Below, piece after piece: positions 1 to 20,210 of a DNA stretch of 64,000 bases. Position 1 is the stretch's first letter; each line of letters starts with the position of its first letter. Below the pieces are notes generated by a model. It had not been told where the DNA came from, did not search any database, and saw only the letters and a list, made by a program, of their open reading frames with translations. The stretch spans positions 95,465 through 159,464 of the forward strand of contig CAVZJV010000005.1 of the NCBI GenBank assembly GCA_963775685.1. Direction: 5' to 3'. This DNA is from Candidatus Bathyarchaeota archaeon (GTDB lineage: Archaea; Thermoproteota; Bathyarchaeia; Bathyarchaeales; Bathycorpusculaceae). Both the position numbers and the translations under genes were made by a program.

Positions 1-116
1 TAGCTACTTTTTGAAAACGTCTTTTTGGAAATGGCAAAAAAATTGAAAAATTCCCAGATGGGGGGGGTTATATCTGAAAGGCGTATTTTCTTTTTTCTGG
101 CGTTACATTCTTTTGC

Positions 117-350
117 CTATTTAGTGCGAAGTGTCATACGTCTAAAGAGTAAGCCCATTTGCGAAACAACTTTCTCGTTAGCATAGTATTTTTGGAAGCA
201 TTGTTCACAAATAGCCTTCATTTTCTGTGAATCTGGAATAAACCCTTCAATGTTAGAGTAAACCGTTTCACCTTTTTCAATGGTTCGGTCACACTTACCG
301 CATTTACCAGAGAACAACGCCTTTCCTTTTGTCCAAACCATCTTTACCAC
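117..350 (-). CDS. Small Zn-finger protein
   Basis: CGKC...CEQC Cys pairs, 77 aa. Confidence 0.6.
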   Translation of the reverse strand: MVKMVWTKGKALFSGKCGKCDRTIEKGETVYSNIEGFIPDSQKMKAICEQCFQKYYANEKVVSQMGLLFRRMTLRTK

Positions 351-533
351 CAGAAGTGATGATATTGGTTATGTTAGCTTTTATGTTTTTGCATCTCTCA
401 GCTTTTTCTAAGTCCCATTTGGTTTCCATAATTTAAAGGAAACGTTGAAGGAAGATGAGGCGTTATAAGAAGCAAATAGGTAACCATTAAAATGATAAGT
501 AAACAAACCCAAATTATAAAAGATTTTTTTCTA

Positions 534-1250
534 CTAAATTTCTTGTTCAGAAACGTCTTTTTGGAATAATTTTGAGCGAAGTTTGCATATTTCTTTCTCA
601 ATAGTAGCAAACTCTTCCAGCTCTTTCGAATACAATTCTCCAACCCTTTGATAAAACCATTTGTAAAAATCTTTGATTAAACATTGATATTGATTTAATA
701 CAACCTTCAAGTCAACCTCTTGATTGACACGGATGTACCTTTTAGAACCAGCACTCAATTTCTTTGAAGGTAACCTTTGCTTTTCCAACAGTATGCTTTG
801 TTTAATTTGCTGCTCTTCTCTGGAAAAATGTGTTAACAAGTAGGGAAATTCAATATGTTGGGTAATATTTCGCAAGTCTTTTATAAAAACGTAACAATCG
901 TTAGGCTCTAAAGCGTTGACTCTTGCATCATATTCTTCTTTTAGTTTTGAGTATTTCTCACAAAATCTTGAATTATGTCTAATCAAACTGAAAGTACTGG
1001 AAAGATAATTATGCAGTAGTCTTGAAAGTTCTCTAAAAAAGAGAGTACGTTCTTTTCCACTATTCCACAATGCTGAGTTGCCTTCGTAATTTGCCATTGC
1101 TAAGGATAATTCTTGATAGTTTCTGTTTACTGCATAATGAGTACTTTTAAATTGTCTAAGCATTATAACGATTTTTGTGCCTTCTAACGTTTCTTGCTTG
1201 TCAGTAAGTTCATTTAATCTTTCAACAATTTCAAATTGTTCTTGACTCAT
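534..1250 (-). CDS. Alpha-helical protein with HEPN-like RxxxxH motif
   Basis: 238-aa ORF with LHNYLSS and LRNITQH (R-x4-H) motifs. Confidence 0.6.
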   Translation of the reverse strand: MSQEQFEIVERLNELTDKQETLEGTKIVIMLRQFKSTHYAVNRNYQELSLAMANYEGNSALWNSGKERTLFFRELSRLLHNYLSSTFSLIRHNSRFCEKYSKLKEEYDARVNALEPNDCYVFIKDLRNITQHIEFPYLLTHFSREEQQIKQSILLEKQRLPSKKLSAGSKRYIRVNQEVDLKVVLNQYQCLIKDFYKWFYQRVGELYSKELEEFATIEKEICKLRSKLFQKDVSEQEI

Positions 1251-1384
1251 TATTTTTCAACATATCCTTAGTCTGTCTGACATTTAGGAACGCGCTAATA
1301 TTCAGTTTTAAGTTTTTTGGCTATTTCTACGCTGTTACAAATTTAAGACTTATTACGTTTTCAAAAAACAAAATGAGGAAAGGG

Positions 1385-2101
1385 CTATTTCTTGGCTTTT
1401 CTCCTTTTGATAAATACAATTGACAATAATGATGCAACTACGAGTATTGGCAGAATTAACCACGATGGAAACTCTGGAACTGTAGGTGTAGGAGTTGGGT
1501 TCTGGGAAGAATAAGGCGTAGCTGTCGGGTCTTGTGTTGGTGTTGCTGTCGGAGTTGCTGTAGGTGTTGGGGCAACTGTTGATGTTGGACTTGGACTTGG
1601 AGTGGTGTTATCCACGGAAGGTGACACATAAAGCACCCAATCATCAACGTTGGTAGTGAGGAAATAAATCTTGTAGCCTTGGCTACCTATCTGTGAATTC
1701 TTTAGACTGTAAGGATAAGGGTTGATTAAATCAATGCCAGTTGTGCCTGCGTTGGCGTAGCCATCATTGCCGCTGTCGCCTACCATAACATTGGTAGCTA
1801 CATCATAAATACTGTATTTTACCCATGTATATTCATAGTAACCGCTGGTGTAGTTGCAGTCCCATTGCATCCACCACATACCATTAGGGTTGGTCGCCGT
1901 CTTAGGTATGAAAACTGTAGGCACAGCATAATCTGTATTTTTGAAAGTATAGGTCGGCGAGGTCAGCGGGGAATCGGGTTGTGGATTTATCCATGGAAGA
2001 AGAGGAAAAGCATCTGCAGGTGCAATCATACAAACCGCAAAAAAGACTAATACGACAGTTACCAAACTACAAATAACCAATACTTTGTTTGCTAAACGCA
2101 T
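1385..2101 (-). CDS. Secreted surface protein with Pro/Thr linker and PEF-CTERM sorting signal
   Basis: Signal peptide, PT-rich stalk, VPEF + TM helix + KRRKAKK tail. Confidence 0.85.
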   Translation of the reverse strand: MRLANKVLVICSLVTVVLVFFAVCMIAPADAFPLLPWINPQPDSPLTSPTYTFKNTDYAVPTVFIPKTATNPNGMWWMQWDCNYTSGYYEYTWVKYSIYDVATNVMVGDSGNDGYANAGTTGIDLINPYPYSLKNSQIGSQGYKIYFLTTNVDDWVLYVSPSVDNTTPSPSPTSTVAPTPTATPTATPTQDPTATPYSSQNPTPTPTVPEFPSWLILPILVVASLLSIVFIKRRKAKK

Positions 2102-2130
2102 AACTACCGCTTCTCCCCAGTTGTAGTGTT

Positions 2131-2340
2131 ATGTTTTTAGCTATTAATAATTTTAGTAATAGTACTCACAATATACTCTACGATTCATTCTCAAATAGTA
2201 CTATGAACTTACCGAAAGAAATGAAGGAAACTTTAGGCATAACTGAGATAAAAGGCAAAATATTGTTTATCTTAGAAGGCTCTCAAGTCATAGTGCAAAA
2301 AGCCTATTTTTATCTGTCAATTTTGACCATTAAAAAATGA
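2131..2340 (+). pseudogene. AbrB/MazE-like DNA-binding protein, possibly degenerate
   Basis: MNLPKEMKETLGI...KILFILEGSQVIVQKA resembles the AbrB swapped-hairpin pattern; start uncertain. Confidence 0.45.
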
Positions 2341-2384
2341 CAGAGAGATATCGGTTTTCTCCATAAAAAAATATATATATGCAC

Positions 2385-2942
2385 TTATCCAGCGTACAAT
2401 TCCCTTAACCTTTTGCTCTCTTCACACTTAACAATCTTGGAATATTCAACAATAAACTCTCTAATTTCACTATAATTAAGAGAGGTTACACGTTCCTTAT
2501 TGTTAATATCACTATTATGAGTAGTAGTATATTGAGAGGTTAATAGTAATTGTATTAATTGTTCTAATTGTGAAAAACCGCAAATTTGAATTTTGTCGGC
2601 TTGAGCAAGGTCTATAACGCTGTTATAGTTTTGTGGTCTATTGGTTAATAATACGTGGATGTGAAATTTATCGGCTATGTGGCAATCTTGGAATCTGGGT
2701 TTAACGCTGTCTAAATACCATTGCGTTCTTATGGGATAATCTGCTTCGCAATGTTTGTTTTCCACGTAAATTTTATATGAGCCAACAGTAAAAATAAAAT
2801 CTACTCCGACCCCTCTTTCCCTTTTCCATAGGTGTGGAATCCAAGAATTGTGATAAGTTAAATATTTGCTTAGTTTTTTGGCTTGAGTTTTTTTGAAAAT
2901 AGAGTACTCTTGGTTTATGCCTATCGTGTCGAATTTGCTCAA
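2385..2942 (-). CDS. PD-(D/E)XK nuclease-fold protein
   Basis: GVDFIF...IYVENKH (D...ExK) motif. Confidence 0.65.
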   Translation of the reverse strand: MSKFDTIGINQEYSIFKKTQAKKLSKYLTYHNSWIPHLWKRERGVGVDFIFTVGSYKIYVENKHCEADYPIRTQWYLDSVKPRFQDCHIADKFHIHVLLTNRPQNYNSVIDLAQADKIQICGFSQLEQLIQLLLTSQYTTTHNSDINNKERVTSLNYSEIREFIVEYSKIVKCEESKRLRELYAG

Positions 2943-2999
2943 GTATTGGCTTGTTATCGTTTTTTAGCACTCTCCCTTTTTAGGGTGTCACACTACTAT

Positions 3000-3182
3000 A
3001 TAAACTTTACGTTTGTAAATGTTTTGGTTGTCATATGTAAAGGTTCAGCATCCATCCACTTTTTAATCAAGTGATTAAAAAACGAACCCTAAAAGCCTTT
3101 ACATATGTAAAAGGTTTAGTTTACATAAAACCATAACATTTATATATTAGTGTATGCATTATAGTGCATAGAGGTTTACACT
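3000..3182. promoter_or_regulatory. Divergent control region with several palindromic operators and a TATA box
   Basis: TTTAC-N4-GTAAA at 3006-3019 and 3098-3111; TTTTTAATCA-AG-TGATTAAAAA at 3060-3081; ATTTATATA near 3138; near-palindrome TATGCATTATAGTGCATA before the RHH gene. Confidence 0.7.
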
Positions 3183-3527
3183 ATGTCAAGTAAAACTAAT
3201 CAAACAGTTTATGTTCGTAAAGGCTCTCAAGCAGTTTTGAAACAATTAAGTGAAAAGACCCGATTAAGTCAGAGTGAAATTTTGGCTAATTGGCTCTCTG
3301 CTATAGAGGTAGTTATGAACCGTTTTTCAGACTTGTCATATGACCGTTTAAGTTTTGCTTCATATCCGACAGAGAGAAAAGAAGTCAAAACGCTGTTAGC
3401 ACCTATAATTAGTGGTGAAGTTCAATTCCAGCTTGATAACACAAGCGAATCTGTAAATGAGGCGAGAGCAGACCACGCAGTGACTAAAGACCTTGAAAGA
3501 ATAGCTCAAAAGGCAAAGGTGAACTAA
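3183..3527 (+). CDS. Ribbon-helix-helix (CopG-like) protein with C-terminal extension
   Basis: QTVYVRKGSQAVLKQLSEKTRLSQSEIL pattern. Confidence 0.7.
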   Translation: MSSKTNQTVYVRKGSQAVLKQLSEKTRLSQSEILANWLSAIEVVMNRFSDLSYDRLSFASYPTERKEVKTLLAPIISGEVQFQLDNTSESVNEARADHAVTKDLERIAQKAKVN

Positions 3528-3528
3528 A

Positions 3529-4203
3529 ATGACCCCTGAAGAAATTGCAGAACAATGGAAAAAAGAAGGCGAAGCACGAATTAACGGTCAACAGCGAACC
3601 GAAGTTATAAAAATTAACGTTGATAATCAAGCCATTACCGATACAATCAACGAAAACAAGAAACTTAAAGCAGAAATTGAAGAGGGAAAGGATGCAACAG
3701 ACTTATTTACTGAATTAAAAGAAAAAGCAAGCGTAGAATTAACGTCTCTCGGTGTGAATACTGAGGTCTCAGATTTAAAGAGCAAAAACGATTTAGATAG
3801 AGCAATAACGACAATTCAGAAATTAAAGGCTGGAAAAGGCTCAAATTCTAATTATCCAAGCATCCCAAGTGGAACAGTGCCGTTATCAAGCCAAACGCCT
3901 GCTAAAAAGTCTGGATATTCAAACGTTGAACAAATGGTGGATGACGCAAACCAGAACAAGGAAATAAGAAACGCATTGCTCTCTAAATGCTTAAAAGGCG
4001 TAAAAGAAGGGCATTTAATTCTCAAAAGCTATGAGTTGCCACTACCAGAAACTCAAACCTCAGATTTAATTGAGAATGGGAAATTATCAAAAAAACCTGA
4101 CGTTCTCGGAATTCAACATATGCACCGAACTAAGAAACTAAGGGAACGTGCTGAAAAAGGCGACTCTCAAGCAATTGACCTTTTGAACAGTGGAAATTAT
4201 TAA
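3529..4203 (+). CDS. Hypothetical coiled-coil protein of the element
   Basis: 224-aa ORF tightly coupled to neighbours, AGGTGA RBS. Confidence 0.75.
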   Translation: MTPEEIAEQWKKEGEARINGQQRTEVIKINVDNQAITDTINENKKLKAEIEEGKDATDLFTELKEKASVELTSLGVNTEVSDLKSKNDLDRAITTIQKLKAGKGSNSNYPSIPSGTVPLSSQTPAKKSGYSNVEQMVDDANQNKEIRNALLSKCLKGVKEGHLILKSYELPLPETQTSDLIENGKLSKKPDVLGIQHMHRTKKLRERAEKGDSQAIDLLNSGNY

Positions 4204-4206
4204 AAG

Positions 4207-4698
4207 GTGTTATGTATGGGTAAAAGACAAAAAATAGCATTTAACGAAAATAGCGAAGTGGTTTTTCTAACCATTGACACAAACACAAACGAAACCATTG
4301 AGACGAAAACCCCTTTAGAAATGGGTCTCTGGAAAAGCAGAGAATTCTATTACATTTTTAAGAGATGTGCCTTAAATCCAGTTTCACTTCAAAACATAGA
4401 AGGATTTTTCATTCAAAAAGTGCTTTTTCGTTGTCCTAATAAAGACGGTCTCGAATTCCATTACTTTTACTTCGAAAAAGGGTTTAGTTTGCCTTGTTGT
4501 AGAATCTTAGACCCACGGTTAAACAATTTGTGCGGTTTAACTTTCCAAGTTTCGACAAATGACCCAACATTCACTAAAAATATAGGTAAACCTAAACGTT
4601 TGTCTAATACAATCGTTAAAAAAGCGATAATTGACAAAAAATATAATGGCATTGATGTTTTAGGATGCTATAGTGAAGACGGCTCGGAGAGGGTTTAA
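4207..4698 (+). CDS. Hypothetical protein
   Basis: 163-aa ORF in the operon; start probably ATG near 4216. Confidence 0.65.
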   Translation: MLCMGKRQKIAFNENSEVVFLTIDTNTNETIETKTPLEMGLWKSREFYYIFKRCALNPVSLQNIEGFFIQKVLFRCPNKDGLEFHYFYFEKGFSLPCCRILDPRLNNLCGLTFQVSTNDPTFTKNIGKPKRLSNTIVKKAIIDKKYNGIDVLGCYSEDGSERV

Positions 4699-4699
4699 A

Positions 4700-4782
4700 G
4701 TGACTGTGTTTAGCTGTGTCTCTTTGGTTTCTTTGAGTCATATCGGGTTTCACCTATTTCACTACACGGCTAAGCACTTCAC
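4700..4782 (+). other. Intergenic stem-loop, 14-bp stem with two G-U pairs
   Basis: GTGTTTAGCTGTGT (4706-4719) pairs with ACACGGCTAAGCAC (4764-4777). Confidence 0.55.
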
Positions 4783-4807
4783 AATTTAAAATTAAGGTGA
4801 TTAGTCT

Positions 4808-5176
4808 ATGCCTTTAAAAAATTGCAAAAAGTGCGGAAAGCCATTTCGGGCTAATACTGGTCAAACGCATTGCCATAATCCTTGTTACCCAGAGAGTGAA
4901 AAAACTTTCAATCATTGCAGTGAGTGCGGTAGAAAACTAATTAATGGTTTTTGGTCTCGAAAACCTGAAAGTGAAAGGATATGCAGTTTTTGCGATGACC
5001 GACATAAAAAATTAAGGGTAACTCAAAAAGAAGACGCACGGAAAAAAACGCTTAGAAAATGCTCAGAATGTGGTGAATATTCGTATTTAGTGCTTAAAGA
5101 ATCGCTTTGCCGTGCTTGTTTCAGAAAAAAAGAGAATCCCAGAATTATATCAATAAAAGAGGTTAAAAATTTATGA
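4808..5176 (+). CDS. Multi-Zn-finger protein
   Basis: Six CxxC-type motifs, basic, AGGTGA RBS. Confidence 0.75.
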   Translation: MPLKNCKKCGKPFRANTGQTHCHNPCYPESEKTFNHCSECGRKLINGFWSRKPESERICSFCDDRHKKLRVTQKEDARKKTLRKCSECGEYSYLVLKESLCRACFRKKENPRIISIKEVKNL

Positions 5177-5298
5177 GTGAAATTCAAAAAGAAAAATGCG
5201 TTTGTGGTTACTCTGAGACCACTTTAAAACTAACTGAATGCACTCAATTAGAAGTTTGCAGTTATTGCGGCTCTATTAGAAGGAAATTTCAGTTTTGA
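5173..5298 (+). CDS. 41-aa Zn-ribbon microprotein (not in ORF track)
   Basis: MSEIQKEKCVCGY...VCSYCGSIRRKFQF; ATGA overlap with the upstream stop, GAGGT RBS. Confidence 0.6.
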   Translation: MSEIQKEKCVCGYSETTLKLTECTQLEVCSYCGSIRRKFQF

Positions 5299-5309
5299 GA
5301 GTGGTAAAT

Positions 5310-5459
5310 ATGGAAGACATAAACAATTTAGAACCTAAAAAACAGAAAAAAGCTAAAACGTTTGAAGAGTGGGAAGCATCTCACAACTTTAAAGACGTTG
5401 ACCCCAAATTAGTTTCTAAGGCAATTTTAGCTGAATATGATAATCGAGAGCAGTCTTGA
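5310..5459 (+). CDS. 49-aa microprotein (not in ORF track)
   Basis: MEDINNLEPKKQKKAKTFEEWE...; GAGTGG RBS, continues the operon. Confidence 0.55.
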   Translation: MEDINNLEPKKQKKAKTFEEWEASHNFKDVDPKLVSKAILAEYDNREQS

Positions 5460-5519
5460 AAAATTTCACGTATATTTTGACGTAGGGCTTTATAAGTGAC
5501 TGTTAAGAGTCAAGATATT

Positions 5520-5588
5520 TAGTGGTTGACTAATCGCCTCAAGGTTTCTGTAAAACTTTAGTCAATTGTGAAGGTTAGTCAACCACTA
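5520..5588. repeat. Perfect 14-bp inverted repeat with 41-bp spacer
   Basis: TAGTGGTTGACTAA (5520-5533) / TTAGTCAACCACTA (5575-5588); extra TTAGTCAA at 5558-5565. Confidence 0.9.
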
Positions 5589-5614
5589 TATTATTGAATT
5601 AAACAAAAAGTGAG

Positions 5615-5839
5615 GTGAAAACTATGCAAAAAATACAAAGTTTCGAATTTGTCTCCGTTAATCACACAAGAAAAACCGTGACCTTAGTTCTCACTCACAT
5701 CTATAACCCTCAATGCAAAGGTTGCAGAGAGAATTTAGTTGAAGCAAAACAGATTGCGAAAGATTACGGTTATACATTCATTCTGAAAGAGCCAAAAGAA
5801 GATTTGCCTTTTCTCAGAAGTGATTTCAATGAACGTTAA
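5615..5839 (+). CDS. Small CxxC protein
   Basis: GAGGTG RBS before ATG at 5624; CKGC motif. Confidence 0.6.
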   Translation: MKTMQKIQSFEFVSVNHTRKTVTLVLTHIYNPQCKGCRENLVEAKQIAKDYGYTFILKEPKEDLPFLRSDFNER

Positions 5840-5849
5840 CTCTTAGTTT

Positions 5850-6346
5850 TTTAACATCCACTCTAATTTTTTTTGCCAAACTAAAACCCCATTTCATTAA
5901 GTATTAATCCATAAACACATATTGTGAAATTAAACCCAAAATAATCCCTATTACGATATTAGACCTAATTATGTACCTATGGACTACTGAACTCTCGAAT
6001 TCAAGTCGAATCTAATTGGCGGGGGGGTATTTAGCCTTTTTTCAACCAATAGACCCCAAATTACAAATACTTTTCTCTTGAAGTTTAAATATTTTACTTC
6101 GAAACCTTTGTTTAATGTCCCTCTACTAAGAGAGACCCTCATTAAATAGTAGTTTTCTACAGTTTATGACACGCGGAATATTATTTAACATCCATCATAA
6201 GAGACCATTAACAGAGACATACACGGCTCTTTTTATGGTAACAATTAGAAACTTAACGGTCTTAGACTGTAGTTAATAGGGGTTTAATGAATGGTCTCGG
6301 CTCTGTTTGGGGTCAACCTTAGCCAAAAAAATTAATTTAACATCCA
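5850..6346. repeat. Non-coding region with direct repeats and nested inverted repeats
   Basis: TTTAACATCCA at 5850, 6184 and 6336; nested pairings 6052-6060/6306-6314, 6132-6146/6283-6298, 6157-6166/6263-6272. Confidence 0.75.
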
Positions 6347-6396
6347 CTTGAGAAACTTGGACAAATAAGAAGAGAAAAGAGAGCCTAAAAAAAGGC

Positions 6397-7638
6397 TTAA
6401 TCAATCTTCACTTTTTCGTTTTGCTGTTCTTTCAGTGCTTCTAAGACTATTCTCTTTATCGTGTTTGGGTCTGTTGCTGTGTTGTTTCTTATGAAGTCTT
6501 CAAGTTTAGCGATTCTTTCCAAGTCGGCTTTTCTCTCGGCTTTTCGTGTTTCTATTTCGACTTGCTGAGAGCCTATCAGGTTGTTTAGGTTTTCCTTGAT
6601 TTTTACTAAGTCTTCTCTGCTCTGCATTCCGTTGATTGAGACGAATTCAAAAGCCTTAGTGTAAGCGTCTTTTATGGTTTGTTCGTCATAGCCATAGTGA
6701 CCCCTTGAGCCTAAACGCTGGTGACCCATCATAAGGTCTTTAACTTCGCTTTTTATGTCGGCTCTGAGCAATGCCGAATTATAGAGACTTCTTAGATGCT
6801 TAGTTTTGAATTCTTTTGCTCTCTCTGAGCCTAAAGCCTTCTCTGCTAAGTTTTTCATTGATTCGTGAATTCGTCTAACCTCAATAGGTGCGTCAATTTC
6901 TGTTTTCTCTTTTGTCTCTGGGTCTATGTCTTCAATTTTTGCGTTTTTGGTTTGAGAAGTGAAGATAAAGCCTTTTTTCGGATTGCCTTTTTCGGCTAAT
7001 AGGTCTCTTAAATCGTGTACTGCTTCGAAACTTAAACAAGTGGCTTGTATTTCGCCAGTTTTTTCTCTGGGTTTCTCTAAAAAGTAGTGTGTGCTTATTG
7101 GGGTTTCATAGAATCCTTTCAAGTCTTCAATGCGAAACTCTGTTACGTCAACCTCAGAAAAACCCGACTGACTGAGAGCCAACAATAAGCAACGGTCTCT
7201 TAATGAGCCGTGGCTATACATTGCTTTAACATCATCCAGCTTTAGAGTCAATTTGTTTTTTATTCTGGTTGACTGAGTGCTGTTCCAGTCTCCACGTCTT
7301 AAATTTAGTTTTCCAGTGGTACGACCAAAAAAAGACGCTATTGTTCTTAGCTCTGATTTTATGCTTAGTGGTGCTAAAGTGGTTTCTGTCTCTCGTTTCT
7401 GTTTGTATTCTCTGAATTTCGACTCAAAAAAAGACCGTGCGGCTAAGTCTTTTGAATTCAAGTCTTCAATGCGTCTTTTTATTTGCTCTGTTGGGGTCAT
7501 TTCGATAAAGTCATTCCAGCTTAAAATCCCTCTTAAATAATTGCCTTTTGACTTTTCAGTGAGACCGTTAAGCCACTGGTTAACGTATTGGTCTTTTAGC
7601 AGTTCTGCAATTTTTGCCTTTATTTCAGTGTTGACCAT
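6397..7638 (-). CDS. Tyrosine recombinase/integrase
   Basis: N-terminal SAM-like core-binding region; LRDRCLL..SQSG, REKT, KHLR, MMGH and Tyr motifs; C-terminal coiled coil. Confidence 0.92.
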   Translation of the reverse strand: MVNTEIKAKIAELLKDQYVNQWLNGLTEKSKGNYLRGILSWNDFIEMTPTEQIKRRIEDLNSKDLAARSFFESKFREYKQKRETETTLAPLSIKSELRTIASFFGRTTGKLNLRRGDWNSTQSTRIKNKLTLKLDDVKAMYSHGSLRDRCLLLALSQSGFSEVDVTEFRIEDLKGFYETPISTHYFLEKPREKTGEIQATCLSFEAVHDLRDLLAEKGNPKKGFIFTSQTKNAKIEDIDPETKEKTEIDAPIEVRRIHESMKNLAEKALGSERAKEFKTKHLRSLYNSALLRADIKSEVKDLMMGHQRLGSRGHYGYDEQTIKDAYTKAFEFVSINGMQSREDLVKIKENLNNLIGSQQVEIETRKAERKADLERIAKLEDFIRNNTATDPNTIKRIVLEALKEQQNEKVKID

Positions 7639-7803
7639 CTAAGCCACTCCGAGAGCCTTTAGAAATTTGGCTTTATTGAATTTCTTATTATCTATTTCGA
7701 AATGTAGCATTAAATCTTTTGTGAATTCTTGCTTAGTGTTTGCAGTGGTTGACTTTAGGAATTCGGCAAAAAAGCAATAGTGTCTTTTTGTGAAATAGGT
7801 CAT
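7639..7803 (-). CDS. 54-aa virus-like microprotein coupled to the integrase (not in ORF track)
   Basis: MTYFTKRHYCFFAEFLK...HFEIDNKKFNKAKFLKALGVA; GGAGTGG RBS; stop abuts the integrase ATG. Confidence 0.7.
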   Translation of the reverse strand: MTYFTKRHYCFFAEFLKSTTANTKQEFTKDLMLHFEIDNKKFNKAKFLKALGVA

Positions 7804-7804
7804 T

Positions 7805-7870
7805 TTAAGCCACTCCATAAGCCTTTAAAACTGCTTTTCTTGTTTTGGGGTCTAATTGGTAACGGCTCAA
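7805..7870 (-). CDS. Possible 21-aa leader peptide
   Basis: TTG start, MSRYQLDPKTRKAVLKAYGVA; its 3' end duplicates that of the next ORF. Confidence 0.35.
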   Translation of the reverse strand: MSRYQLDPKTRKAVLKAYGVA

Positions 7871-7979
7871 TTTAACTCTAAAATCTATAGAATTAGAGAG
7901 ACGTTGATTTAATAGCAAAAAACTATTAAGAGTTTTAGCGATTAAATAGGCTGTTCCATATATGAAAGAAAAAAAGGGG

Positions 7980-8393
7980 TTATCCTTGCGTTTTCAGTTT
8001 TTTCCAGTCAAGATACGAAATAACAACCAATATTACTGTCCAGATTGCCCAGAAGGCGAAGGCGGGACTGATAAAATACAGTGGCAAAGCTATTACGCGG
8101 TTAGCAATTGAAGCAGCTATTACCAGCAGAGGAGCCCAAGCAAGTTTCTTTAGCAGCCCAAACAAAGCCACACCATACACGGCTGAAACTAATAGCAGAA
8201 TCACAGTTCCCGCAATCAACGCACTATAATTGCCTATAACAGTTGCGATATAGCCTGTGTTTAGTGAAGAGTCTCGAGAAGCAGCGTTAACCCACCAGAA
8301 TGCTACGTTGCCGATGTCACCGATTATGTTGATGGCAACAAAAATGATCAAGACTGTGTGCAATTTATCTAATTTTTCAATCTTTGTTTTCAT
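7980..8393 (-). CDS. Four-TM membrane protein
   Basis: Hydrophobic helices, 137 aa. Confidence 0.8.
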   Translation of the reverse strand: MKTKIEKLDKLHTVLIIFVAINIIGDIGNVAFWWVNAASRDSSLNTGYIATVIGNYSALIAGTVILLLVSAVYGVALFGLLKKLAWAPLLVIAASIANRVIALPLYFISPAFAFWAIWTVILVVISYLDWKKLKTQG

Positions 8394-8440: not shown

Positions 8441-10294
8441 CTAACTTCCCATCATGGAGTAGTCCACTTGGTAGATGCGCAGGTTGCTATCAGAGTAGAC
8501 AGTTGTCAAAAACCCCACAGAGTCAAAATGCGATATACAATTTGATGTGTAGTAGCTGATTTCTTCGTTACCGACATACACATAAGACACGTTGAATTCT
8601 CGAATTACCGACGCTAATTCTGTTATAGTACCATTGTAAGCTGAGTCGATTTCTTTTTCGCGCTGCCACACTTGATCCAAAGGTATTCCATGACCATATG
8701 GCCAATAAATATACGACGACACTCGCACCCGACCCGCAATCATAGTTGGAGGCTCATGAATACCATAATAAGTCAAAAACACCGAGTTCTGCGGCGTGTT
8801 GTCCCGAACCCACAAACCAAGTTGGTATTCACTCCAACTAACACCTGTGTAGTCGGTCCCAACATTGTATACTATAACGCTCGATGTTGTGATGACTGAA
8901 AACAAAACCAACGCCACCACCAAAATACGCCTGGTTTTAGCCAACATGATGCCGCTAAGCACTGCGATGAGTACCCAGGCAAACATGAAGAACTTGTACA
9001 TGTCCCAGCTCCAAGGCGTCAACAAAAGCATATTTGGAATTAAGAAAAGTATCAACAGAGTGATTTTGAGGTATTGGTGTCCGCGTTTGAAGAAAGAGAT
9101 GATTGCCAAGGCAAAGGGGATTCCTAGATTTAGTGGGTAAAAAACAAAGGGATTATTATGAACATAGGTGGCAAAAAAGTCCAGGTTAAAACTAATCGAG
9201 AACGATGACCCGCTAAAAAGGATGAAAGGCAAGGCAAAGATAGTGGGTAACAAAAAATACAGGTAACTAAGTTTGATTTTGCGTAGGTTAATCAGCAGAC
9301 AAATGGCGTAGACGACGTAGCAACAGAAGAACGCAACATTGTGGAATTCATACGCTAAACCTGTCAAGACTCCTGCGAGAATTAAGCGATTTCTGTCATC
9401 CATATCCCGTAGCAAAGCCAGAACCAAAGCAAACGCTGGCAACCCAATAAGCAAGGGGCGCTGCTGCAAGAGATTATCAAACATTGAGGGCAACCCAAAG
9501 GTTTGGCCAAACTGATAGATGTAATTCTGCGTTGGAGTAAACGTGCCATTGAGAAGGGCTGAGAACAAACCTAAATAGCTCAATCCCCAACCGAAAACGC
9601 TGATAACTGTAGCAACAACTGCCGCCCGCCGACCATAAGGTCGCGCCAACGCGTAAACCGCAAAACCAAAAAACAGAATGAACAAAGCATTAAGGACAGG
9701 CATCAAGGTAGGCAGGTATCCGTAGACTTTTTCAAGGATAGCCGTATGGAAGTCGACAAAGTAGTGGTAGCTAAGAGGTGTACCCAAATAGTTTGGGTTT
9801 TGAGGTGGGAAGTTGCCGTTGTTTAAGCTTTCGATAATTTCGTAATGGAAAGGTGTGTCCTGCCAGTTAGAGCCCGTGACGACTATGCCGTACTGGTCGC
9901 CCCGCCAAACACTGAGACCCAACAAGGCAATTGAAACAAGAAATATAACTGCGAAGAGAAGCAAGCTGGTTTTCTTAATCTGTCTCACTTTAAAAAACAT
10001 CTGGGGTTTTAGTGGTTCGCCCTTCTTGTAAACTACCCAAGCATACAACGTTGTTAAAGCCAGAAAACAAACGAGTATAGTTTGGCTTGAGTAACCTGCT
10101 GCCAACGACGCGTAATAGATGAGTTGGACGGACACTAAAACACTAAAGAGAGGTATAAAAGCCCATGTTTCATAGGATTTCAAGCGGAAAAAACGGATAC
10201 CAATTAGACCTGGAACCAGAAAAGTGAAGAGAAAGGCGGCCACAAGACCAACGATGAATGAACCAAACCCCGCAGAAGTCAACACTAAAAACAC
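8441..10294 (-). CDS. Polytopic GT-C-like membrane protein (YYY/DUF2298-like putative glycosyltransferase)
   Basis: Many TM helices; D.PFH...FPPQNP..G.PLSYHYF loop; soluble C-terminus with WVRDNTP and YVYVG..E. Confidence 0.75.
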   Translation of the reverse strand: MFLVLTSAGFGSFIVGLVAAFLFTFLVPGLIGIRFFRLKSYETWAFIPLFSVLVSVQLIYYASLAAGYSSQTILVCFLALTTLYAWVVYKKGEPLKPQMFFKVRQIKKTSLLLFAVIFLVSIALLGLSVWRGDQYGIVVTGSNWQDTPFHYEIIESLNNGNFPPQNPNYLGTPLSYHYFVDFHTAILEKVYGYLPTLMPVLNALFILFFGFAVYALARPYGRRAAVVATVISVFGWGLSYLGLFSALLNGTFTPTQNYIYQFGQTFGLPSMFDNLLQQRPLLIGLPAFALVLALLRDMDDRNRLILAGVLTGLAYEFHNVAFFCCYVVYAICLLINLRKIKLSYLYFLLPTIFALPFILFSGSSFSISFNLDFFATYVHNNPFVFYPLNLGIPFALAIISFFKRGHQYLKITLLILFLIPNMLLLTPWSWDMYKFFMFAWVLIAVLSGIMLAKTRRILVVALVLFSVITTSSVIVYNVGTDYTGVSWSEYQLGLWVRDNTPQNSVFLTYYGIHEPPTMIAGRVRVSSYIYWPYGHGIPLDQVWQREKEIDSAYNGTITELASVIREFNVSYVYVGNEEISYYTSNCISHFDSVGFLTTVYSDSNLRIYQVDYSMMGS

Positions 10295-10527: not shown

Positions 10528-10605
10528 GCCCAGGTAGTATAGTTAGGTCTAGTATATGCGGCTGTCGCCCGCAGGACCCGGGTCCAAATCCCGGCCTGGG
10601 CGCCA
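10528..10605 (+). tRNA. tRNA-Asp(GTC)
   Basis: GCCCAGG/CCTGGGC acceptor stem, anticodon arm TGCGG-CTGTCGC-CCGCA, encoded CCA; T-loop reads TCCAAAT. Confidence 0.95.
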
Positions 10606-14364: not shown

Positions 14365-15978
14365 ATGTTAACCTCTGCAACAAAACGGTTCATTCTTCCC
14401 TTCTCAAACCAAAAGCAAAATCTGCCCGAGACCGAGGCAGCAGCCGTTTTTGCCGTTGCAGATTTTGAAAGAAGCAAACGCGGAGGCTTTTTAAATAAGC
14501 AACTTGAAGAAAAATTGGTTTTTATATCGATGATTTTCTATCCCATATGGCTGTTTCCTGAAAACACTATGGGATTTGTTTTCGACGGTTTTGGCGATTC
14601 CAGCTATCGCGTGTCTTATGTTGAACTCCCACCTGTTAAACAATTCATAGAAAGCTTTGAAGCAAATTCTATACCTATAGAAAATTATGCAGCATTCCTC
14701 TCAGATCACACCAACTACTTCCAACAATCCATTAAAGAGAAACAGTATGTGTTTAGGGGCTTAATCGCTGATTTGGATTTTAAGAATGAGTTTAATGTTT
14801 ACCGCAAGGAAGCAACAGAAATAATTTCACAGCCAGGAGCAATACTTTCATTAACCCTTGAAGAAACGACAATTTACTCTATGCTATCAGAATTTGACAA
14901 ATTGCGGCTATCTTTTAGGGAAGAAGATGAAAAACTTTTAGAATACACAAGGCGCATAAACAAAACAACAAAGCAATACCTAACCGAACTCGACTATGAA
15001 ACAGCTGCCGCAAAAGAAGAAGCCGACGCTAAAATCAAAGCACAAGAAGAACTCGTTAATCCCCAAGTAGCTAAATTGAACAAGGAGTACAACCGCAAAA
15101 TCAAGGATTTGACCGAAAGCTTCTATGAGGAAATGGAGAGTCTAAAAAAAAGCAGGACAAAAACTTTAAAATCCATAGAAATCTGTGAACTAAAAATTAA
15201 GAGCTACGAACGCGAGGCAAAAGCTCAAGCTATAAAAAAACATGCAATTTATGAGAAAAGATGGAAGGAAAAAATCAAGCAAACAAAAAAGGACCTGAAA
15301 AGCCTCAGAAAAGAAATAAAGAATATAGAGAGACCCCTTAAAAAAATAAGCAAACAAAAAACACAGGGGATTTACGAATTAGATGTTGAACTTGATGCTG
15401 AAATCAAGTTAGTTCGACAACCACTGCAACAACTTGAGGTCACCCTTAAAGACAAAATACTTTTCTTCAAACAGGAAACCGAAAAACTTCTCAAAAAAGA
15501 AAAACCTGTCCTTGAAAGTCTCAGCAAAAGCATCAAATTAAGGGAAGACAACAAAGCCATGTTTGAAGGGTTGGGAATTCAGAGTGTAGACTTGAAGGGT
15601 CCAGCTCTGTTTTACGTTCCATTTTATGTGGCAGGCTATGAAACTGGCCTGACAAGGCGCTACTATATGCTGCCGCCTTCAACGATTGCAGCACTAGATT
15701 TTTCGGCCAAGCTCAAAGGAGCCTTTGGTTTGTCAAAAATCAGAGAGCTTTTTGTGCCACGCTACAAATCAATTTCTAGCTTAATTAGCAATGTTCAAGT
15801 TTTAACCAGGCAAAACAGCATGTTTGAAAGCCAGATGTATAATTTATGTTATAGAAACAATCTATTGAACAACAGTTTGTTCATGGAAAATGTTCAGAAA
15901 GGGTTGGTTTACCTGAATCATCTGGGAAGGCTCTCAGACAAGGACCAGAAGGTTTTAAGCAACCGATCAACAGCATAA
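14365..15978 (+). CDS. Hypothetical long coiled-coil protein
   Basis: 537-aa ORF with central heptads; YPIW and YVPFY motifs. Confidence 0.85.
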   Translation: MLTSATKRFILPFSNQKQNLPETEAAAVFAVADFERSKRGGFLNKQLEEKLVFISMIFYPIWLFPENTMGFVFDGFGDSSYRVSYVELPPVKQFIESFEANSIPIENYAAFLSDHTNYFQQSIKEKQYVFRGLIADLDFKNEFNVYRKEATEIISQPGAILSLTLEETTIYSMLSEFDKLRLSFREEDEKLLEYTRRINKTTKQYLTELDYETAAAKEEADAKIKAQEELVNPQVAKLNKEYNRKIKDLTESFYEEMESLKKSRTKTLKSIEICELKIKSYEREAKAQAIKKHAIYEKRWKEKIKQTKKDLKSLRKEIKNIERPLKKISKQKTQGIYELDVELDAEIKLVRQPLQQLEVTLKDKILFFKQETEKLLKKEKPVLESLSKSIKLREDNKAMFEGLGIQSVDLKGPALFYVPFYVAGYETGLTRRYYMLPPSTIAALDFSAKLKGAFGLSKIRELFVPRYKSISSLISNVQVLTRQNSMFESQMYNLCYRNNLLNNSLFMENVQKGLVYLNHLGRLSDKDQKVLSNRSTA

Positions 15979-18004: not shown

Positions 18005-19492
18005 TCAAATCTTTTTGTCGTCGACTCTTGGCGCCTCTTTGGGTATTTTGGAGTTAGCCAGGGCATCCTCGATGGTTTTTCCTTCGCTTATCTTCATGTC
18101 GTAAGCTGAGGCATAATTTCGGGCATTTTCAGTCAGACCGGGTATAACAAATATCAGCGAATCACATTCAATATCATTTATCATGCCGTAGATTCGGGTC
18201 ATTTCTCGCACATCAAGGGGTTTGCTGGAAATTAAAACTTCAATGACGGTGTTGCCATTATCTTTCCGCAATGCAGATTTTCTTATAATCGGGTTAAAGG
18301 GCTCTATCCACCCAACTCTGCCTAACACAAGAATATCAAACAAGTGCTGAGTGCCAGACCTTCCGCTCACAAACGCCGGAGTAACAATAGTATATCCTAA
18401 AGACTTGAAGAAATTAGCACAGACTTCAATGGGTTTTATCTGCTGTAGTTCCTGCATGGTCAATTCAGAGTTTGCAGTATACTCGTAGAGGAGCACTTCA
18501 GGTTCTTCATCGAGTTGAGCTGTTGATCCACAGTCGTCGCATTTAACCACCAGCAAAGGTTCCTTGCTTCGAACGTTACAATTAAGACATGTGTACGCAG
18601 TAGGCAACACTCGGTAATCTGAGCCAACAAGCTGTAATTTGTCTTTGCATTTGGGACACACAAGGTCTTTATTTGCAGTTTCAAATACAGTTTGTGTATC
18701 TATAGTTCCGCAAGAGAGGTGTTCTATGATTCCTTCTTTGCGTAACCTCAACGATAAACATTCAGGACACAACTTCTTGATTCTAACGCTTGCAGAGGCA
18801 CATGCCACGCAAACGACAACTTTGTCTATGAGCTCTGCTTTTAGGAACCCCTTTCGAACAAGGGAGTTAAGTGTCTGTCTTGCCCTTTTAGTATCCCAAT
18901 CCAACTGGGGAAAACCATCATAGAAATAGCCCTCGGGTCTTGACGAGTCGGCGATAGGCACAATTTCTTTAACCTTTCCGTAGAGGAAAAGCTCCATTAG
19001 GTTCTGTTCATCTTTCCGCAATCCTTGCTCATCAACAAAATCTGTGATTTCTTGATTTTTTGGCAACATCGATGTCGAGGTCCCGCCATTCATAAAGGTA
19101 ACCTCGTTACCGTTATTGCTGAATCCATTGCTTGGTTTTTTGGAACTTTTTAACTCAGGAATTTTCAACTTATTTTTGCGTTTACTACGTAATTCATCTA
19201 TCCTCAATGCCACTACAAAGCCTACGGATAAAGAAGTCTCTAGAATCAATATCAATATTATTGCTACCATAAATGGGGCGTTTGACCCAAGGCCGGTCAA
19301 GGACGTTAATGCATAGTAGAAACTGTCAAAGAAATAGATGGAAACTATACTTGCACTATAATAAAATGCGGGTATGGAAAGTCCAATTCCTGAAATAATT
19401 GAAAAAACGTATAAGGCCAAAACTTTTCTTTTCAAAGTCTTAATCGGAACTACCTTAAATACGAACCCTAGAAGGAGTCCTATAAGAAGCAT
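18005..19492 (-). CDS. Membrane-anchored TackOD1-like multi-Zn-ribbon protein with C-terminal nuclease-like domain
   Basis: N-terminal TMs; GYFY + wHTH; repeated CxxC, IEHLSCG, CPKC...GSDYR; GRSG..HLFD motif. Confidence 0.75.
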   Translation of the reverse strand: MLLIGLLLGFVFKVVPIKTLKRKVLALYVFSIISGIGLSIPAFYYSASIVSIYFFDSFYYALTSLTGLGSNAPFMVAIILILILETSLSVGFVVALRIDELRSKRKNKLKIPELKSSKKPSNGFSNNGNEVTFMNGGTSTSMLPKNQEITDFVDEQGLRKDEQNLMELFLYGKVKEIVPIADSSRPEGYFYDGFPQLDWDTKRARQTLNSLVRKGFLKAELIDKVVVCVACASASVRIKKLCPECLSLRLRKEGIIEHLSCGTIDTQTVFETANKDLVCPKCKDKLQLVGSDYRVLPTAYTCLNCNVRSKEPLLVVKCDDCGSTAQLDEEPEVLLYEYTANSELTMQELQQIKPIEVCANFFKSLGYTIVTPAFVSGRSGTQHLFDILVLGRVGWIEPFNPIIRKSALRKDNGNTVIEVLISSKPLDVREMTRIYGMINDIECDSLIFVIPGLTENARNYASAYDMKISEGKTIEDALANSKIPKEAPRVDDKKI

Positions 19493-19810
19493 GAATAGGG
19501 GTGCAACAGGAAAGAGAATATTTGCTATTCTTGGTCACCTTTCAAACTTTATCCATTAGGGCTTGCTTCTAAGATAAGCATTTTTGAGAAACAGAATTTA
19601 CCTATTTTTCCAATTTTAATTCAGCCAAGAAGATTCAGATAAAATGAATGCGAAATTACCTTATCTAAATTAGAAAAGTATAATTCTCATATAAATAAAA
19701 AAGTTGATGGCTAGAAAAATCAATATGAAAAACACCAAGCGGATTTACTCTATTTTAGCTCTAAAATAAGTCTTAGTTACAGTCATATTGCATCATGTTT
19801 ATCCTTACAT

Positions 19811-20210
19811 CTATTTGATGGTTTTCTGAGTCGGCGGAGGAGGTACAGGTAGCACGGTCGCTTTTGAAAGGTTTTCTTGCTCATTAAGGATTAGCGAAAT
19901 TGCCTTGCCTTCAGGTACAATTATCTTAGTGTTGTTCTGCAGTGATGCTGAAATCGTATCCAGTTGCTTAAAGGTGATGGCGCTGTCTTTGAAGTACGTG
20001 GTTAGTGCCTCATTTCTCAACTTGGTGGCTTGCGCGTCCCCTTCAGCTATGGCAATAGTTGCGGTTTTCTGACCCTCGGCTTGCAAGATGGCGGCTTGTT
20101 TTTGGCCTTCAGCAACTTGAATCGCAGCGTTTTTCTGTCCACTTGCCAACGTGGCCTGAGCTATAGCTGTTTTTTCCGCAGCTTGTCTTTCGTTGTCCCG
20201 AACAACTCAT
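19811..20210 (-). pseudogene. C-terminal fragment of an SPFH/band-7 protein
   Basis: AEGQKQAAILQAEG repeats and NNTKIIVP; SPFH domain missing. Confidence 0.75.

Follow-up and report, generated by a model that had tools for sequence, protein, structure and literature searches.

In Thaumarchaeota, integrated elements have been assigned to an operational class, the cryptic integrated element (CIE), which has no signature gene and whose attachment (att) sites can be as short as 8 bp (PMC6563490). In Archaeoglobus veneficus, ArcVen-P3 has been described as a putative 9.5-kb provirus related to sphaerolipoviruses (PMC4158269). For Bathyarchaeia, the known mobilome consists of virus genomes of classical types from metagenomes, a few dozen in number, and the families 'Fuxiviridae', 'Kunpengviridae', 'Chiyouviridae' and 'Huangdiviridae' have been proposed, with head-tailed, filamentous or spindle-shaped members and recognisable capsids (PMC10848311). 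The available excerpts of these three papers are the basis of all the comparisons with them made here. The present work concerns E1, an integrated element at the left end of a stretch of 64,000 nucleotides (hereafter the window) from Candidatus Bathyarchaeota archaeon (assembly GCA_963775685.1, contig CAVZJV010000005.1, positions 95,465 to 159,464).

In all likelihood E1 is a mobile element that its recombinase inserted site-specifically in an intergenic spacer, one of two diverged copies in the genome, and a member of a family that we found described nowhere. No description of such an element family was found in the full-text literature, judged by title and abstract, and supplements may list such elements unnamed. 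The marks of the family can be given with high confidence. These are a XerA-like integrase, a soluble FtsK/HerA-fold ATPase of about 350 aa encoded at the opposite end on the same strand, the small protein p59, and an operon for RHH-like, coiled-coil and beta-rich proteins. A PD-(D/E)xK-like gene, which is frequent, and a variable cargo slot very probably belong to the family as well, which is so far restricted to Bathyarchaeia.

Insertion of E1 and of its second copy

The window corresponds to C5:95465-159464 (C5 being the contig named above) in a 3.06-Mb assembly of 14 contigs. On this contig 95 kb are present left of the window, and window positions in that part carry a minus sign. E1 occupies C5:93862-103433 (window -1602 to 7969; 9,572 bp), with 1..7969 inside the window and the remainder, leftward to -1602, outside it. 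A preliminary description, made from the letters of the window alone, had placed the element at 1..7900, which falls short of the real span and covers about 82% of it. The same description was right that the left part of the element lies outside the window, but the replicase or capsid genes that it thought might be there were not found, and this part holds an FtsK/HerA-type ATPase gene instead. The GC content of E1 is 0.357, compared with 0.419 and 0.423 in the flanks and 0.424 in the genome, and a GC scan gave 0.33-0.39 across about C5:92000-104000 and 0.42-0.46 on either side.

E1 is located between a PNPOx-like gene on the left and the gene of a 137-aa membrane protein on the right (window 7980-8393). 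Forty congeners were searched with the 18-kb region; in many of them the gap between these two genes is only 32-110 bp, and E1 was present at this site in none of the 40. The empty sites of seven same-genus genomes (G001, G002, G010, G012, G022, G023 and G038) were aligned base by base. Their homology to the source contig ends at C5:~93848 on the left and restarts at C5:~103433 on the right, with the flanking host genes adjacent and the 9.6 kb absent in all seven. The genes of E1 are therefore not syntenic core genes, and the left flank, now extended, shows no known virus or plasmid family. Either of these two outcomes had been named in advance as evidence against the first proposal, a 'poorly described integrative plasmid, satellite or provirus', and neither was found, so these words remain a fair description of the locus.

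The empty-site alignment revealed imperfect direct repeats of 14 bp at both ends (11/14 identical), the attL core at C5:93848-93861 and the attR core at C5:103420-103433. Just inside the cores there are inverted-repeat arms of 13 bp, at C5:93863-93875 and C5:103402-103414, which are complementary at 12 of 13 positions when read by eye. The right junction is located inside the window at 7938..7969, where the arm takes positions 7938-7950 and the attR core, equal to attL at 11/14, takes 7956-7969. According to the contig extension, the attL core, its inverted arm, the ATPase gene (C5:93987-95060, -) and most of a 427-nt stretch upstream of this gene lie left of the window. If the two ends of E1 were rejoined, the 13-bp arms would flank the attP core, 20 bp apart. 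Long direct repeats were also considered as att sites and discarded: none of at least 14 nt flanks E1, and the short cores emerged only from the empty-site alignment. A tRNA gene as the target was rejected too, since there is none at either junction and the nearest one, for tRNA-Asp, is at window 10528-10605. An Rfam scan of E1 gave nothing near the gathering score, and a simple k-mer scan found no CRISPR array in the host genome.

A diverged, collinear copy of E1, named E2, was found by blastn in the same genome at C14:1357457-1366821 (L010:5457-14821; L and G numbers are our own handles for loci and genomes). It measures 9,365 bp, with a GC content of 0.352, and is flanked by a ferredoxin-like gene and an MFS transporter gene which are adjacent to each other in congeners. 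The E2 attB is conserved across four aligned empty congener sites, and the junctions present a 10-bp core (9/10 identical) and 8-bp inverted arms. A third element, L023, measures about 9.4 kb; the two genes on either side of it are separated by 66 bp in L018, and a core of ~10 bp is repeated at the ends of the element. These three independent insertions at three intergenic sites, with the same att architecture, establish site-specific integration by the element's own recombinase.

This recombinase is encoded at 6397..7638 (-), where an integrase had been recognised from the start. The product is a tyrosine integrase of 413 aa, and its matches as a single sequence are weak (PF00589 E 1.3e-4, under the curated cut-off; phrog_216 'integrase' E 8.9e-7). 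The profile of 15 family integrases settles the assignment, as it matches XerA (4a8e E 2.6e-16, 5hxy E 2.5e-12) and XerD (1a0p E 3.7e-8) in the PDB. The alignment of these 15 shows no variation at K193, R283 and Y315 and very little at G310, which belongs to a G-H pair. The integrase gene is whole in the integrated state, with the att core outside it, and being unsplit it is not of the SSV type (type I) of archaeal integrases.

Next to the integrase gene is that of p59, a helical protein of 59 aa with homologues in relatives (7639..7818, -). In six loci (L018, L019, L023, L036, L054 and L073) the p59 gene is directly 3' of the ATPase gene; in E1 it is found immediately before the integrase gene instead, at the opposite end of the element from the ATPase. 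Both positions correspond to one and the same order, ATPase-p59-integrase, on a circle opened at different points, which is indirect evidence of a circular intermediate. Judging by gene order, this also shows that the att sites have shifted within the ATPase-p59-integrase unit.

The divergence between E1 and E2 is not uniform. At the nucleotide level the ATPase genes are 72% identical, the Zn-ribbon genes 68% and the nuclease-like genes 88%. The last value extends over the region at window 2384-2951 (C14:1361324-1361891 in E2), compared with 68-72% elsewhere. A stretch of 427 nt upstream of the ATPase gene (window -377 to 49, C5:95087-95513) is 89.9% identical to C14:1358630-1359055. Set against the 72% of the ATPase genes, these two similar regions indicate recombination between E1 and E2, and for the 427-nt stretch the alignment suggests a recent recombination or gene conversion between the resident copies. 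The idea that this stretch is a conserved RNA or cis element was abandoned, since other loci share just 23-66-nt pieces of it.

Concerning the insertion neighbourhood, the host genes to the right of E1 encode the 137-aa membrane protein (7980-8393, -) and a 617-aa polytopic membrane protein (8441-10294, -). Both are kept across the genus, and no Pfam or NCBIfam match was obtained for either. In two relatives, at L029:6930-10384 and G027 C19:293-11688, fragments of a family ATPase were observed within a few kb of the same PNPOx-like and 617-aa genes that flank E1, together with a p163 gene (the beta-rich gene of the operon described below) in G027. Elements of the family may thus land repeatedly in this PNPOx-like/617-aa neighbourhood.

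The hallmark ATPase, the conserved operon and other genes

The hallmark gene of the family encodes the ATPase of 357 aa located left of the window on the minus strand (C5:93987-95060), with a Walker A motif of the form A-x4-G-K-T and an acidic Walker B motif. The family has no match of its own in Pfam, PHROG, NCBIfam or PADLOC. A word-index search recovered 178 homologues at E <= 1e-3 among 4,011 candidates; among the 120 homologues listed none is informatively named, and one carries PF01935. K42, G45 and K46 are invariant in the family, and E171 and E172 nearly so. The neighbours of the ATPase gene are p59, in relatives, and a non-coding stretch.

The ATPase profile did not find anything significant among the PDB sequences (best E 0.094). 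An AlphaFold2 model was built from 28 sequences (pLDDT 79.3, pTM 0.71), and Foldseek related it at E about 1e-7 (2.5e-7 and weaker) to SIR2-HerA, the STIV2 packaging ATPase B204, HerA and VirB4. The VIA-align Z scores were 19.1 for HerA (4d2i), 17.6 for DndH-C, 16.4 for VirB4, 16.1 for TrwB, 15.7 for B204, 14.1 for TcpA and 13.4 for FtsK. According to the Walker motifs and the modelled core fold, the protein is a member of the FtsK-HerA superfamily. It is not HerA proper, since the N-terminal HAS-barrel has no counterpart in it and there is no NurA-like neighbour among the proteins scanned with Pfam and PHROG. At the C-terminus, 80 residues make up a long helix and, after it, an acidic tail that is conserved, and a Kyte-Doolittle scan detected no hydrophobic or transmembrane segment.

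These structural neighbours also bear on the possibility that E1 is an integrative plasmid or mobilisable element. The ATPase would then serve DNA transfer, segregation or replication as a helicase, and the operon led by the RHH-like gene would act in copy control or partition. We consider this possible but rather doubtful. In small actinomycete integrative elements the FtsK-like TraB serves DNA transfer, and conjugation ATPases are among the top structural neighbours here (VirB4, TrwB and TcpA, with the Z scores given above). Nevertheless, the E1 ATPase does not have the marks of a conjugative or TraB-type translocase (VirB4, VirD4, FtsK-like TraB), because it has no membrane anchor and is accompanied by no pore proteins, and no conserved membrane protein that could form a pore was found in the family.

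The other conserved part of E1 is a co-directional operon at 3183-5459 (+). The preliminary description had read it as an RHH-led operon with Zn-finger ORFs; the operon and its Zn-ribbon ORFs stand, and the RHH identity of the first gene is plausible only. This gene (3183..3527, +) encodes a protein of 114 aa with a match to Pfam RHH_3 below the cut-off (E 0.0062). Its first 50 residues align to the syntenic family of relatives (hhalign E 1.2e-4), and the family profile did not match any solved RHH structure in the PDB.

The second gene (3529..4203, +) encodes p224, a coiled-coil protein of 224 aa with a conserved G-x-x-P-L motif and a family present in 14 loci. The coiled coil is N-terminal, the C-terminal half is helical, and no match was obtained in Pfam, PHROGs or the PDB. 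Its nearest language-model clusters are those of phage scaffolding proteins (0.86-0.89), values below the tool's reliability line of 0.9 that serve as a lead only.

The third gene (4207..4698, +) encodes p163, a beta-rich protein with a called product of 160 aa, whose superfamily always comes after the coiled-coil gene. In other loci the same slot is filled by the c19, c68 and c240 families. Profile-profile comparison by hhalign supports homology between p163 and c19 (94%) and between c19 and c68 (93%), and the c240 family shares the position. An exhaustive profile search with p163 yielded 257 representatives at E <= 1e-3, 112 of them at E <= 1e-10. The AlphaFold2 model, from 111 sequences, reached a pLDDT of 92.0 and a pTM of 0.79, and no fold match was obtained for it: the best Foldseek E values were 0.15 in the PDB and 0.054 in BFVD, and the best VIA-align Z over 48,161 chains was 3.5, when models without a clear match typically give Z 7-8. 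The Protein Atlas gave no usable match. Lacking a structural neighbour, p163 has no recognisable jelly-roll, HK97, Rep or primase fold.

The operon continues with the gene of a triple Zn-ribbon protein of 122 aa with three CxxC pairs (4808..5176, +), a Cys-rich ORF of 41 aa (5173..5298, +) and an ORF of 54 aa (5295..5459, +), which are 51%, 71% and 75% identical to their E2 counterparts by tblastn, respectively. A further ORF of 74 aa with a CxxC motif (5615..5839, +) is common to one relative, L011, at 60% identity.

Between this last small ORF and the stop codon of the integrase gene there is a non-coding stretch of 557 bp with a GC content of 0.334 (5840..6396). It contains three exact copies of an 11-nt motif (5850-5860, 6184-6194 and 6336-6346), against an expectation of 0.73 matches per 18 kb. 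At the corresponding place in E2 a variant motif occurs three times, and 65 nt of the stretch are 86% identical to E2. The motifs are candidate iterons, origin sites or regulator sites. The several hairpins that had been pointed out in the element turned out to be at chance level, with six terminator-like sites in E1 against 4.7 +/- 2.3 in shuffled sequences.

Upstream of the operon and divergent from it, a nuclease-like protein of 185 aa with a PD-(D/E)xK-like motif is encoded at 2385..2942 (-). It had been noted as a divergent nuclease gene, an identity that is plausible only: a D...E.K-like motif is indeed present, and family support is limited to stray weak matches. The family occurs in seven loci, and the proteins of E1 and E2 are 89% identical. 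D48 is invariant; the E-x-K of E1 is E-x-S...S-K in relatives. The weak stray matches were to NERD (E 0.064) and DUF4143 (E 0.025), each in one of six members, and the profile had no significant match in the PDB, the best being an uncharacterised SPbeta protein (E 0.0011).

A HerA-like ATPase and a PD-(D/E)xK-like protein could together form an anti-virus system, as in HerA-DUF4297 and SIR2-HerA, in which case E1 would be a defence island or a decaying, immobile remnant. This seems very improbable to us. The closest solved structures of the ATPase do include defence HerA complexes (8woc, 8wiv and 9c1m), the nuclease-like gene is found in seven loci and E2 carries a defence candidate, but PADLOC gave no match for the ATPase, and the nuclease-like gene does not adjoin the ATPase gene and is missing from most loci. 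Moreover, the genes are intact, the insertions, found at different sites, are strain-specific and have att repeats that match, and the ATPase is always at the element end beside att and p59.

The variable cargo slot separates the nuclease-like gene from the ATPase gene. The E1 slot contains a Zn-ribbon ORF of 77 aa with two CxxC pairs (117..350, -; weak PHROG matches, E 0.004-0.006) and two proteins of 238 aa each. The first of these (534..1250, -) is a protein of unknown family with 47 homologues and an Rx4H motif, and had been proposed to be HEPN-like. The motif is conserved, with R127 invariant and H132 nearly invariant in 20 aligned homologues; the HEPN assignment is plausible only, as no HEPN family was found in Pfam (0/20 members) and no match in the PDB. 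A relationship of this protein to the E2 cargo was tried and rejected (E 5).

The second cargo protein (1385..2101, -), which would be secreted or anchored, is not conserved in E2. As had been proposed, its translation reads as PEF-CTERM cargo: an N-terminal hydrophobic segment (residues 1-38) and a Thr/Pro-rich linker are followed by PEF, a hydrophobic helix (208-226) and a basic tail, and these last three features are those of a PEF-CTERM sorting signal. No NCBIfam match was obtained for it at E <= 0.01. By the Kyte-Doolittle scan it is the only real gene of E1 with hydrophobic segments. The E2 slot encodes a 287-aa protein for which PADLOC returned the defence candidate PDC-S32 (E 1.2e-108); it also contains a membrane-anchored Zn-ribbon protein and an ORF of 56 aa that has two hydrophobic helices.

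Library scans added little to these assignments. Three of 16 proteins gave Pfam matches, all below the curated cut-offs (PF00589 E 1.3e-4, RHH_3 E 0.0062 and DUF5382 E 0.0086); for 18 proteins, PHROGs returned phrog_216 'integrase' and nothing else of note, and neither NCBIfam (18 proteins) nor PADLOC matched any E1 protein. In agreement with what had been read from the letters alone, no polymerase, primase, Rep, terminase or capsid was found in the Pfam, PHROGs and NCBIfam scans. The hallmarks of head-tailed viruses (Caudoviricetes), that is, terminase, portal and HK97 capsid, had no match among the proteins of E1 and E2 in these scans. As for a jelly-roll capsid near the ATPase, Pfam and PHROGs gave no capsid family, and p163, the one core protein modelled, had no jelly-roll match. 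A capsid protein with two hydrophobic helices, as in Fuselloviridae and 'Huangdiviridae', is absent from E1, and the two-helix 56-aa ORF of E2 is unshared. The search was extended to 130 ORFs from 17 related loci (Pfam E <= 1e-4), where HNH endonucleases (L018, L073) and a DUF4365 protein (L025) were found inside elements, the remaining matches were to host genes past the element ends except for the replication protein treated in the next section, and no capsid, terminase, portal or Rep was found.

The genes recognised so far could also be those of a virus satellite. In Sulfolobus, pSSVx and pSSVi are satellites mobilised by helpers. An element of this kind, without capsid genes of its own and mobilised by a helper virus of Bathyarchaeia, would agree with the small size, the integrase, the lack of recognisable structural genes and the mostly integrated state. 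We consider it improbable, since a DNA-pumping ATPase and a conserved three-gene operon are more than archaeal satellites are known to carry, no helper virus was identified, and no gene is common with the described Bathyarchaeia virus families in the excerpt available (PMC10848311).

Outside the element, some features of the contig deserve mention. Two host genes left of E1 are each read as two overlapping ORFs: one like the Phe-tRNA synthetase beta subunit (436 + 184 aa, C5:87450-89160, L008:7450-9160) and one for an ABC-transporter ATPase (231 + 141 aa, C5:90737-91754, L008:10737-11754). These may be frameshifts or assembly errors. Further GC dips were observed at window 14501-15500 (0.357) and 19001-20000 (0.359), in surroundings of about 0.42-0.45, and they may be other foreign segments.

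Distribution and nature of the element family

Relatives of the ATPase were found at 76 metagenome loci and at 20 loci of GTDB species genomes, every one of the latter labelled Bathyarchaeia or Bathyarchaeota. Of 301 genomes sampled across the class, four have the ATPase (source genome included) and five have p163, with three in common. This patchy spread is the pattern expected of a mobile element. Where at least 9 kb were available upstream of the ATPase gene, a full-length integrase was found upstream on the same strand in 18 of 24 loci, and none was in reach in the other six. Measured from the start of the integrase to the end of the ATPase, 17 of the 18 span 8.6-10.5 kb (mean 9.32, SD 0.52; three rows of these statistics are one sequence from three collections), and the remaining locus has an arrangement of 4.1 kb. 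Clustering of the ORFs of 43 loci placed the integrase in 27, the p224 family in 14, the RHH-like family in 12, p59 in 11, and the nuclease-like and p163 families in seven each.

Regarding the nature of E1, insertion, a circular form and a virus-like agent can be joined in an explanation of three layers which, taken as a blend, has in our opinion an even chance of being correct. E1 would excise as a circle, where ATPase, p59 and integrase would be one co-directional unit across attP, and the attP core of 10-14 bp would lie between inverted arms that probably bind the integrase. The circle could, tentatively, be the genome of a small temperate virus-like agent. In such an agent, the ATPase would pump the dsDNA of roughly 9.3 kb into a particle, the coiled-coil p224 and p163 would be the assembly module, as scaffold-like protein and shell protein, and the repeat-bearing 557-bp stretch would serve replication with reliance on host enzymes.

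The inclination towards a virus comes from four observations. The size stays within narrow limits although the genes in the middle have diverged until they are unrecognisable; the gene immediately before the small beta-rich one encodes a scaffold-like coiled-coil protein, the likeness to scaffolds being a lead only; and in its small size and solubility the ATPase resembles the packaging ATPases of viruses. In the known cases of archaeal elements as large as E1, small soluble FtsK/HerA ATPases are packaging motors. The fourth is that the 9.5-kb provirus ArcVen-P3, in its available description, has a similar gene repertoire (PMC4158269). A stronger version, in which E1 represents a new small temperate archaeal virus lineage with a p163 shell of novel fold, a scaffold-like coiled coil and a HerA-like packaging ATPase, is unlikely. 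If it were true, this would be the first FtsK/HerA packaging motor paired with a non-jelly-roll capsid, and a candidate new high-rank taxon of Bathyarchaeia viruses.

Several results weigh against a virus-like agent. The p163 model is unlike jelly-roll, HK97 and other known capsid folds, the scans for capsid genes were negative, and no conserved membrane protein was found in the core. Cellular and defence HerA, DndH, VirB4 and TrwB outscore the viral B204 as structural neighbours of the ATPase, and the scaffold likeness of p224 is under the 0.9 line and has no Pfam or PHROG support. No ATPase relative was found in the virus collections IMG/VR and INPHARED or in PLSDB, and no p163 relative in IMG/VR. 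In addition, none of the fetched loci of at least 4 kb has the terminal repeat that would mark a circular free genome, and excision was not observed. In public reads, four soil-metagenome runs contain only 0.06-0.07 of the sampled words, as contigs, and these are small fragments of relatives; no RNA run was listed among the matching ones. The contigs cover mainly E1 cargo genes, with 90-99% likeness, and as none bridges an attP or attB junction they are uninformative on excision or expression.

The last result against the virus-like agent is plasmid-like in character. A 531-aa DUF5906 protein, a replicase of the SF3-helicase type (E 4.5e-21), is encoded in the relative L012 (L012:4926-6521, -). 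No other replication protein could be recognised in the family, and neither E1 nor E2 has a counterpart of this one. This replicase, the PDC-S32 defence candidate in the cargo slot, the lack of a recognised capsid and the repeat-bearing non-coding stretch, which could be an iteron origin, are all consistent with the integrative plasmid or mobilisable element considered above. Against it, apart from the missing membrane proteins, E1 and E2 have no recognisable replicase, there is no relative in PLSDB and there are no circular contigs, and the narrow size range is unexpected for plasmids with variable cargo. On balance, the plasmid is nearly as likely as the virus-like agent, and the satellite and the defence island or remnant are less so.

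Bathyarchaeia are among the most abundant archaea of sediments, peat and soils, and the family is common in public data, with 178 ATPase homologues and 257 p163 representatives. Only the integrase matches a named family, so standard virus or plasmid detection would not flag these elements. The family offers a defined system, with mapped att sites, for gene flow and the carriage of defence candidates in an uncultured class. In p163 it provides a conserved protein whose model is very confident and has no relative by fold, and it is a test case for whether FtsK/HerA motors serve non-jelly-roll capsids. If E1 is a plasmid, it would be a candidate backbone for genetic tools in Bathyarchaeia.

Comparison with known systems

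At the level of the hallmark protein, the best matches to the ATPase core are HerA of Sulfolobus (4d2i, Z 19.1) and the HerA proteins of the SIR2-HerA and DUF4297-HerA defence systems (Z 17.9-17.8). Residues 11-272 of the E1 ATPase align to residues 107-466 of HerA, the N-terminal barrel of HerA being without a counterpart. Unlike the HerA systems, the E1 gene has no NurA, SIR2 or DUF4297 partner next to it, and PADLOC did not match it. The viral protein B204 of STIV2 (4kfr, 4kft) aligns over 188 of 204 residues, with Z 15.7, an rmsd of 3.1 and a Foldseek E of about 5e-7. However, the identity is 11%, the E1 protein is 150 residues longer, with its helical C-terminal extension and conserved acidic tail, no double jelly-roll capsid gene stands alongside it, and cellular HerA scores higher.

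Concerning the viruses of the same host class, E1 resembles them in that some integrate via a tyrosine integrase. However, it is without the hallmark genes of the four proposed families, and none of the four, as presented in the available part of that work, resembles E1 (PMC10848311).

The similarity to ArcVen-P3 is closer. Both elements have about 9.5 kb, a terminal integrase, RHH, Zn-binding and coiled-coil proteins and a divergent FtsK-like ATPase (PMC4158269). On the other hand, ArcVen-P3 has an integrase of the SSV type that is split on integration, its 55-bp att lies within a tRNA gene, and a VP16-like jelly-roll capsid protein is encoded downstream of the ATPase, at a distance of one gene (PMC4158269). 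E1 has a whole integrase and an intergenic att of 10-14 bp, and no jelly-roll was found in it.

Finally, by the criteria of the Thaumarchaeota scheme, in the part of it that is available, E1 is a CIE (PMC6563490). It shares with this class the integrase, a size under 20 kb, the short att sites, the mostly unknown genes and the lack of a viral, casposon or conjugative signature (PMC6563490). What distinguishes E1 from the CIE, an operational class, is that its family has a fixed architecture, hallmarks of its own in the ATPase and p163, a narrow size and another host class (PMC6563490).

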